DNA of 64,000 nucleotides from an uncultured Gammaproteobacteria bacterium (GCA_964609095.1 CAZSQN010000001.1:278117-342116); one strand, 5' to 3'. Positions 22,466 to 23,090 are shown, counted from the stretch's first letter. Numbers and translations: made by a program. The notes: a model not told the origin generated them from the sequence alone.

Positions 22466-22534
22466 TTAATTATATTGAGTAGTTTAGCACAAAGCTTGGG
22501 ACTTGACAAGAAGCGGCGTTTATGATAGCTTGGT

Positions 22535-23090
22535 CATACTCGGTGACCGGCGAAAAATTTAAAGACAAAGCCGCTCACCCTGCCCCAAAAAACAGGAGAA
22601 CGTCCACTCCTTTAGGGGACAGTACCGGACGAACGGGAACGGAAGGCACCCCGTATATGGCCGTTGTGTTGGCGACCCGAGACGCAGCGCGTCTGCGGGA
22701 CCAATAGCAAGCCCCGCTTCGCGGAGCCGGCGGCCATATTCAACCTTCCACCTTTTGTTCCTTAAGCGGCTGGGCCTAAAGGAGGCGCCCTATCACTCAT
22801 TACAAACGTTCGTCGGGATTGCAGCCCGCCTCGCAGTACTGCGAGGAGACCCGAAAATAAGCAAAGCAAAAAGGGGTGATGGTCCAATAACCCACATTGA
22901 TCAGGGGTGAGGGCCGCGAACGCGCGTAAAGAGATGGGAGAGATGGTTCAACTCCATCCAGCCGCACTAGTTCGGAATTGGAGGATAAGGCGTCCAGATT
23001 GGCGCAGGAAACGCCATGGTGCAGCCGCCAGTTTCGAACTAACTATCTTAGCAGCGGTTCAGCTAAAAACTGAACCGCTTTTTTATTTTG
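22535..23090 (+). ncRNA. Unclassified, highly structured ncRNA candidate (about 550 nt)
   Basis: There is no ORF of 60 aa or more on either strand except two isolated, unrecognisable 61-64-aa ORFs. A TTGACA -35 lies at 22503-22508. Nested GC helices are dense, for example atatggccg 22645-22653 pairing with cggccatat 22729-22737, gacgcagcgcgtc, and cctcgcagtactgcgagg. A T-arm/acceptor-like motif GATGGTTCAACTCCATCCAGCCGCA is present. A strong terminator lies at 23052-23090 (agcggttcagctaaaaactgaaccgcttttttatttt). Confidence 0.45.

Follow-up and report, generated by a model that had tools for sequence, protein, structure and literature searches.

Genomic setting

The window, by which we mean the whole 64-kb stretch of DNA that was analysed, is core chromosome, with genes for L1, L11, NusG, ThyA, FolA, GyrB, FtsW, PrmC, PrfA, L31, S2, EF-Ts, glycolysis enzymes, Tgt, Fpg and UvrD, and no transposase, integrase, reverse transcriptase or TROVE/TEP1-like gene was found in its 64 kb. 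The locus considered here lies between rpmE, on the opposite strand, and a gene at 23229-25850 (+) whose 873-aa product is identical to a protein of the Candidatus Uhrbacteria (CPR) MAG GCA_016181485.1. This protein matches Pfam MVP_shoulder (E = 6e-11) and, in profile searches, the PDB vault structures 4hl8 and 4v60 (E = 5e-18 over ~400 residues). Its predicted secondary structure, of low confidence (AlphaFold pLDDT 55), runs from beta repeats through a shoulder of alpha/beta type to a long helix in the cap; the model was too poor for a fold search. On these profile matches we take the downstream protein as truly homologous to the major vault protein (MVP). About 45 relatives of it were found, mostly in uncultured bacteria; the bacterial MVP homologs treated in a preprint come from Myxococcales, Cytophagales and Oscillatoriales only (10.1101/872010).

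In the three nearest relatives (L001, L005 and L030) the MVP proteins are 74-79% identical to that of the window, and the layout is kept, with rpmE on the opposite strand followed by a promoter, a conserved leader and the MVP gene. The MVP promoter and a 5' leader of ~100 nt are conserved in all four species (window 23118-23228, L001 998-1098, L005 332-438, L030 ~385-480), the leader hairpins CGCGCUA..GGCGCG and GUCCGGCGGAACCGGGC being invariant; none of the four sequences shows a compensatory change. Judging from this alignment, the leader is a candidate cis-regulatory element. Between the leader and the MVP gene, L001 (1112-1543) and L030 (526-879, +) carry an acidic ORF of 117-143 aa with no Pfam match, and L030 also holds a free-standing gene for an 87-aa GIY-YIG nuclease (56-319, -) between rpmE and the MVP promoter. 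In the window, a gene of the '23S rRNA intervening-sequence protein' family, which is not in the gene list of the NCBI contig, lies between prfA and rpmE (21533-21772, -).

A lineage-specific segment in the MVP promoter

A 608-nt segment (22510..23117, +) of the rpmE-MVP spacer is, by alignment and blastn, absent from the same site in L001, L005 and L030. Flank alignment shows it to be bordered by two direct copies of the 8-mer CTTGACAA, at 22502..22509 and 23118..23125 (+), and these are the only two occurrences of the 8-mer in the 64-kb window; counting one copy, the indel measures 616 nt, and it lies inside the promoter of the MVP homolog. Each of the three related loci has one CTTGACAA, one promoter and no RNA. 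The sequence upstream of copy 1 is orthologous to that upstream of the single CTTGACAA of the relatives (..AGTTTAGCAC..), and the sequence downstream of copy 2 finds its orthologous counterpart in the relatives' spacer, -10 and leader; an empty site would read ...GGGACTTGACAA joined directly to AGGGGGGCAAT. From this orthology on both flanks it follows that 22510-23117 is either an insertion with an 8-bp duplication or the survivor of an inter-repeat deletion in the relatives. By MVP identity the window, L001 and the L005/L030 pair are about equidistant, and a single insertion here is thus at least as parsimonious as any deletion scenario. Insertion in this lineage appears, from these comparisons, to be the most likely origin of the indel.

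The 22510-23117 sequence is no assembly artefact, as four independent assemblies (L006-L009) have it in identical form; L006 is an NCBI contig, and the other three are Logan contigs assembled from different runs. Look-ups of strain variants via MVP and L31 returned identical sequences only, all from one sample series.

Copy 2 of the repeat forms the -35 of the conserved MVP promoter. Copy 1 likewise includes a -35 hexamer, TTGACA (22503-22508, +), which together with a putative extended -10, TGaTAGCTT, 17 nt further on (22523..22531, +, read by eye) would constitute a promoter for the putative RNA, with a predicted transcription start near A22538. The two promoters are laid out alike, TTGACA-17-TGaTAGCTT for the RNA and TTGACA-16-TGaTAATGT for the MVP gene. 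A consensus promoter scan listed neither of them and both were read by eye; the -10 of the RNA promoter matches the consensus at three of six positions and for this reason went unreported.

The rpmE-MVP spacer is a hot spot for mobile DNA, with MITE-like repeats just upstream of the segment here and the GIY-YIG gene in L030. The MITE-like repeat, which carries the perfect 25-nt inverted repeat TGTCATTCCCGCGAAAGCGGGAATC, is found in the window at 22306-22468, 8656-8793 and 29489-29573. Assemblies break or collapse at this repeat (window 22403-22504 is missing from L006, the NCBI contig, and the Logan contigs begin at ~22441), and it is the source of the only 'significant' Rfam E-values, given by spurious miRNA and FtrB matches. 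An AT-rich, partly palindromic repeat is common to several intergenic regions (22225-22305, 49119-49191 and also 19383-19415).

Predicted structure of the region

Nowhere else in the 64-kb window is there so large a stretch without long open frames as in this region. In agreement with an earlier, sequence-only reading of this DNA, its GC content is about 56% (0.56-0.57 computed), and the only ORFs with a start codon inside it are two short ones, of 61 aa (22522-22707) and 64 aa (22907-23101). Two further stretches of the window without long open frames, 42571-43213 (643 nt) and 5691-6159 (469 nt), have a GC content of 0.42-0.44 and gave no Rfam match at gathering score.

The minimum free energy (MFE) of the + strand at 22530-23090 is -224.5 kcal/mol, as against -183.5 +/- 6.4 kcal/mol for dinucleotide shuffles (z = -6.37), while the - strand of the region reaches z = -3.78 relative to its shuffles; the + strand structure is more stable than its own mirror image on the - strand by 12 kcal/mol. 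Three consecutive segments (22538-22765, 22766-22966 and 22967-23045) each fold beyond shuffles when taken alone, with z = -4.6, -4.2 and -5.3, respectively. All six helices that the sequence-only reading had listed were found in place on the + strand, namely ggtcatactcggtgacc at 22532-22548, ctgcccc/ggggacag around the inner ggag/ctcc at 22580-22622, the long-range pair atatggccg/cggccatat (22655-22663 with 22731-22739), gacgcagcgcgtc at 22681-22693, ccgcttcgcgg at 22714-22724 and cctcgcagtactgcgagg at 22829-22846.

The first segment (22538..22765, +) is a 5' module, delimited from the MFE structure and the helix list, in which two hairpins (22542-22579 and 22580-22622) precede a branched domain at 22627-22760. 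The 12-bp stem of this domain, AUAUGGCCGUUG/CGGCGGCCAUAU, has a pair probability of 0.97. Values of 0.3-0.5 in the ensemble leave the module's basal helices uncertain. At the other end lies a long 3' hairpin (22968..23041, +; scored as 22967-23045 above) with a 14-bp basal stem of pair probability 0.99. It is followed by an intrinsic terminator (23053..23090, +), which had also been recognised from the sequence and which the terminator scan reports as a 10-bp stem at 23053-23079 with a 7-nt loop and the T-run tail TTTTTTATTTT (pair probability 0.99).

Two sets of alternative pairings were seen in the region. The heptamer CAGCCGC, which forms the 3' strand of the acceptor stem described below, recurs at 23024-23030 inside the 3' hairpin, 65 nt past the first copy. 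Pairing of GCGGCUG (22766-22772) with either copy could in principle constitute a conformational switch; the second copy could also be a chance occurrence (for any one 7-mer the probability within 120 nt is ~0.7%). In addition, hairpin H2 and the D-like hairpin described below share a perfect 10-nt complementarity, CUCCUUUAGG/CCUAAAGGAG (22607-22616 with 22775-22784). This pairing competes with local helices and has a pair probability of 0 in the nested ensemble, and chance alone predicts ~0.15 such pairs for an RNA of this size; it could represent a tertiary or kissing contact.

Predicted tRNA-like domain

The segment GATGG-TTCAACT-CCATC-CAGCCGC-A had been singled out as resembling a T-arm followed by a 3' acceptor strand. 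It is confirmed at 22942-22966, and the motif is more complete than was thought: whereas the sequence-only reading saw no convincing 5' acceptor partner, GCGGCTG at 22766-22772 is perfectly complementary to CAGCCGC at 22959-22965, and the match can be extended by one nucleotide, GCGGCTG(G) at 22766-22773 being fully complementary to (C)CAGCCGC at 22958-22965. The 201 nt thus enclosed (22766..22966, +) are predicted by MFE and pair probabilities to form a tRNA-like four-way junction. The 7-bp acceptor stem (0.94; values here are mean pair probabilities for the full-length ensemble) is followed, after one spacer nucleotide, by a D-like hairpin, GCCU-AAAGG-AGGC (22774-22786, +; 0.98), with GG in its loop. 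A branched arm of 150 nt (22789-22938, +) takes the place of the anticodon arm and is closed by the base stem CCUAUC/GAUGGG (0.85), and a linker AGA(G) leads to the T-arm GAUGG-UUCAACU-CCAUC (22942-22958, +), whose stem has a pair probability of 0.79. The discriminator, A22966, is followed by CUA. The D-like arm is non-canonical, as it is without U8 and A14 and has a 5-nt loop.

This T-arm is the sole canonical one (5-bp stem, loop TTCRANY, G53/C61) on either strand of the 64 kb, shuffles giving an average of 0.175, and two of 200 shuffled windows combined a T-arm with a perfect acceptor partner of 7 nt no more than 600 nt away. A degenerate T-loop/acceptor pattern was found at 120 or more loci in IMG/VR. 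Ninety of these at least 120 loci are tRNAs according to ARAGORN (57 Leu, 16 Arg, 14 Gly and three other isotypes), which identifies the motif as genuinely tRNA-type. ARAGORN called no tRNA at the other 30, which comprise about 20 bare tRNA 3' fragments, a tRNA-Leu with an intron-sized insertion, taken by eye for a group I intron, and a few odd tRNA-like RNAs. None of the at least 120 loci resembles the rest of the RNA beyond the T-loop/acceptor.

Known families and relatives

A cmscan search of the window with all 4227 Rfam families (Rfam 15), as the sequence-only reading had proposed, gave no match at gathering score. At E<=10, nothing credible was found inside the RNA when 22300-23250, the tRNA-like domain and the 5' module were searched, the spurious matches all being located outside it, in the neighbouring palindrome, or scoring below 17 bits. 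The covariance models for tmRNA, RNase P, SRP and 6S RNA gave no credible match, which bears out the impression that the region fits none of these, and recognisable members of Y RNA, OLE, ROOL, GOLLD, raiA, HEARO, group I/II introns and small ribozymes are likewise excluded by the Rfam search.

A tRNA was considered and rejected. With default settings ARAGORN finds neither a tRNA nor a tmRNA, and allowing introns of up to 700 nt still gave none. An intron-containing tRNA has been described for Patescibacteria (PMC13011429); here, ~17,000 brute-force deletions produced sliding, spurious ARAGORN calls, none with the acceptor at 22766, and Intron_gpI was not matched at E<=10.

The searches for homologs were sensitive to close relatives only, roughly at or above 85% identity over 24 nt. 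Within this range, back-translated 24-nt patterns (six per scan) retrieved no homolog from IMG/VR, the JGI metagenomes or the GTDB species genomes, and exact 21-mers of the RNA were not found in IMG/VR. Six IMG/VR loci that passed a tblastn filter proved spurious, with no DNA similarity to the RNA. Nor did blastn against phages and plasmids yield a homolog, at E 1e-5 or at E 10, the sole alignment being one of 30 nt between the T-arm/acceptor and the 3' end of a phage tRNA-Ile (E = 7). The RNA was found at 0 of 15 other MVP loci (~190 kb; nhmmer, blastn and a T-arm descriptor); larger gaps upstream of MVP in L010 and L012 were inspected and correspond to small ORFs, not to the RNA. The candidate RNA is thereby an orphan, with no family match, no relatives detected and a single host species, and is a plausible, if unproven, new RNA with a tRNA-like domain.

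Interpretation and alternative readings

The region probably encodes a real, transcribed structured RNA. The claim of an unclassified large structured RNA held up in that no Rfam family matches, the region appears non-coding and it folds beyond shuffles. Of the three outcomes by which the sequence-only reading would be refuted, two were checked for, a confident Rfam match and a protein-coding pseudogene, and neither was seen. Overall the interpretation is partly supported; the label 'structured RNA' draws on the thermodynamics of a single sequence, the terminator and a promoter identified by eye. Strand asymmetry, the oriented T-arm and the terminator point to an RNA rather than a DNA element; against a function it can be said that a GC-rich insert in a genome of 48% GC can fold well without any role.

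Our favoured reading, which we advance tentatively, is that a structured non-coding RNA of ~550 nt is encoded on the + strand by an accessory, stand-alone gene, with a sigma-70-type promoter, a terminator and a tRNA-like domain that is processed by tRNA-maturation enzymes. Transcription would start near 22538 from the sigma-70-type promoter TTGACA-17-TGaTAGCTT and would be ended near 23085 by the strong intrinsic terminator, and the transcript is predicted to fold into three self-contained modules. In the middle one (22766-22966) the 7-bp acceptor would stack on the 5-bp T-arm within the predicted junction, a domain that tRNA-maturation enzymes might recognise. RNase P would then cut 5' of G22766, and trimming followed by CCA addition would take place past A22966. 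The expected products are a 5' RNA of ~228 nt and a tRNA-like RNA of ~200 nt, as in tmRNA precursors and MALAT1/mascRNA, the latter product possibly serving as a tRNA mimic or scaffold and not as a tmRNA. This processing scheme is conceivable and is held with still less confidence than the gene itself.

A small non-autonomous mobile DNA element of MITE- or PATE-like type, in which the hairpins would act at the DNA level or be incidental cargo and the likeness to an RNA gene would come about incidentally through insertion into a promoter, is unlikely but is the foremost competitor. Its appeal lies in the discrete 608-nt insert, the flanking 8-bp direct repeats, which have the form of a target-site duplication, the location in a spacer visited by MITE-like repeats and by the GIY-YIG gene of L030, and the short inverted AGCGGC/GCCGCT shared by the two ends. 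However, these inverted termini extend over 6 bp only, the ends are unique, and the element is single-copy in the 64 kb and in all loci fetched, with no copy detected in the viral, metagenome or genome collections and no transposase, integrase or reverse transcriptase in the window. The pointers to an RNA given above (orientation of the T-arm, terminator, strand asymmetry) count here as well, and a mobile element would be compatible with an RNA gene if the RNA were its cargo.

It is improbable that the region is a non-functional remnant, i.e. decaying foreign DNA in which the T-arm/acceptor is a tRNA 3' fragment left as the att scar of an integrative element. Bare att-type tRNA 3' fragments do account for about 20 of the at least 120 IMG/VR pattern matches. 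The fragment considered here, however, lies 150 nt within the insert, away from its edge, and the insertion site is a promoter and not a tRNA gene. Moreover, the fragment is without CCA and without a remnant of an anticodon arm, and it belongs to a four-way junction made complete by a D-like hairpin, a closing stem and a perfect 7-8-nt partner on the 5' side.

Among known families, tmRNA (SsrA) is closest in architecture to the candidate RNA. The two have in common a 7-bp acceptor, a 5-bp T-arm with a 7-nt T-loop, a discriminator A and a large structured insert that replaces the anticodon arm, as well as a stand-alone gene with its own terminator and the removal of a 5' leader by RNase P (here predicted); the acceptor and T-arm resemble the 3' end of E. 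coli tmRNA. At a threshold of 80%, ARAGORN returned a sub-threshold 'permuted tmRNA' call. That a divergent or second tmRNA is encoded, with or without a tag, is nevertheless very improbable. The same call states 'Tag not identified', in keeping with the earlier failure to see a tag ORF, and offers a 23-aa Arg-rich peptide ending in KKG, candidate tags being without the usual hydrophobic C-terminal residues. Pair 3:70 is G22768-C22963 and not the G.U of alanine identity. ARAGORN in its default settings does not recognise the RNA, and neither do the Rfam tmRNA families, also when the domain is searched by itself at E<=10. It further differs from tmRNA in the stem-closed D-like hairpin and in its additional parts, a structured 5' extension of 228 nt and a 3' hairpin of 75 nt.

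The location directly upstream of a true MVP homolog, in the same orientation and with a duplicated -35 box common to both genes, brings to mind eukaryotic vault RNA, and with it an RNA partner of a bacterial vault-like particle. Such an analogue is exceedingly improbable. The linkage to MVP is not conserved, the RNA being absent at MVP in the three nearest relatives and at the 15 other MVP loci (0/15), and a strong terminator and the MVP gene's own conserved promoter stand between the two. The window has no TROVE/TEP1-like gene, the promoter type differs, and at ~550 nt the RNA is far above the ~90-140 nt of vault RNAs. Base-pairing of the RNA with the MVP leader was, by RNAduplex, no better than with shuffles. 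Any functional tie to the adjacent vault protein, for example as cargo or as a cap-bound RNA, is likewise the less likely case.

A decayed protein-coding gene is just as improbable and can be set aside: a stop-free frame of 115 codons exists (22563-22907), but it has no start codon, the six-frame stop-free segments of the region give no Pfam match at E<=1, no similarity to the extra ORF of L001 was found, and 5.8 billion clusters / 1.8 billion representatives hold no protein relatives of the pseudo-ORFs except low-complexity noise, so that the pseudogene which had been named as a refutation left no sign in any of these checks.

Relation to other structured RNAs

Taken as a non-coding RNA gene, the candidate has partial likenesses beyond tmRNA. 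With the YrlA type of bacterial Y RNA, the partner of Rsr/Ro, it shares the non-coding nature and an embedded tRNA mimic with a near-canonical T-arm. YrlA is ~110 nt long and its 5' and 3' ends form the Ro-binding stem, whereas the tRNA-like domain of the candidate is internal to a transcript of ~550 nt, with no Ro/TROVE gene in the window and no Rfam match. MALAT1/mascRNA and tRNA punctuation provide examples of an internal tRNA-like structure, which here too could direct RNase P and 3'-end processing; those systems are, however, eukaryotic or organellar, and for the candidate RNA processing is a prediction. ROOL, GOLLD, OLE and raiA are similar in size (~200-800 nt), in their many helices, in an undefined biochemical role and in an accessory or mobile context, but are defined by hundreds of covarying homologs, as opposed to one species and no family match in the present case.

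Large structured bacterial RNAs are rare, and each new class (tmRNA, RNase P, OLE, ROOL, GOLLD) has brought new biology. CPR/Patescibacteria genomes are tiny and have little spare DNA, so that devoting 550 nt to a non-coding gene that includes a tRNA mimic would be a notable outlay. Should the domain be processed or bound in the manner of a tRNA, a role in translation, in RNA quality control or in mobile-element conflict may be envisaged for it in this uncultured lineage. The duplication of the -35 box suggests how an RNA gene could enter a promoter without silencing the host gene; that the RNA is the first member of a new class of large RNAs with tRNA-like domains, carried on a small insertion that duplicates a promoter -35 box so that RNA and host gene both stay transcribed, is a long shot. 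With one sequence only, the RNA is a candidate and not a discovery. The locus also draws attention to an unstudied clade of CPR major-vault-protein homologs.

Odd tRNA-like RNAs of ~100-115 nt, neither of which ARAGORN calls, were observed on two IMG/VR viral contigs (L141 1487-1602 and L051 6719-6818). Both have a T-loop and the acceptor GCGGCUG/CAGCCGC-ACCA, as in the candidate RNA, and the 5' end of the L141 RNA, GCGGCUGAUCGUUGGGAUACGGGG, recalls the 5' end of tmRNA.
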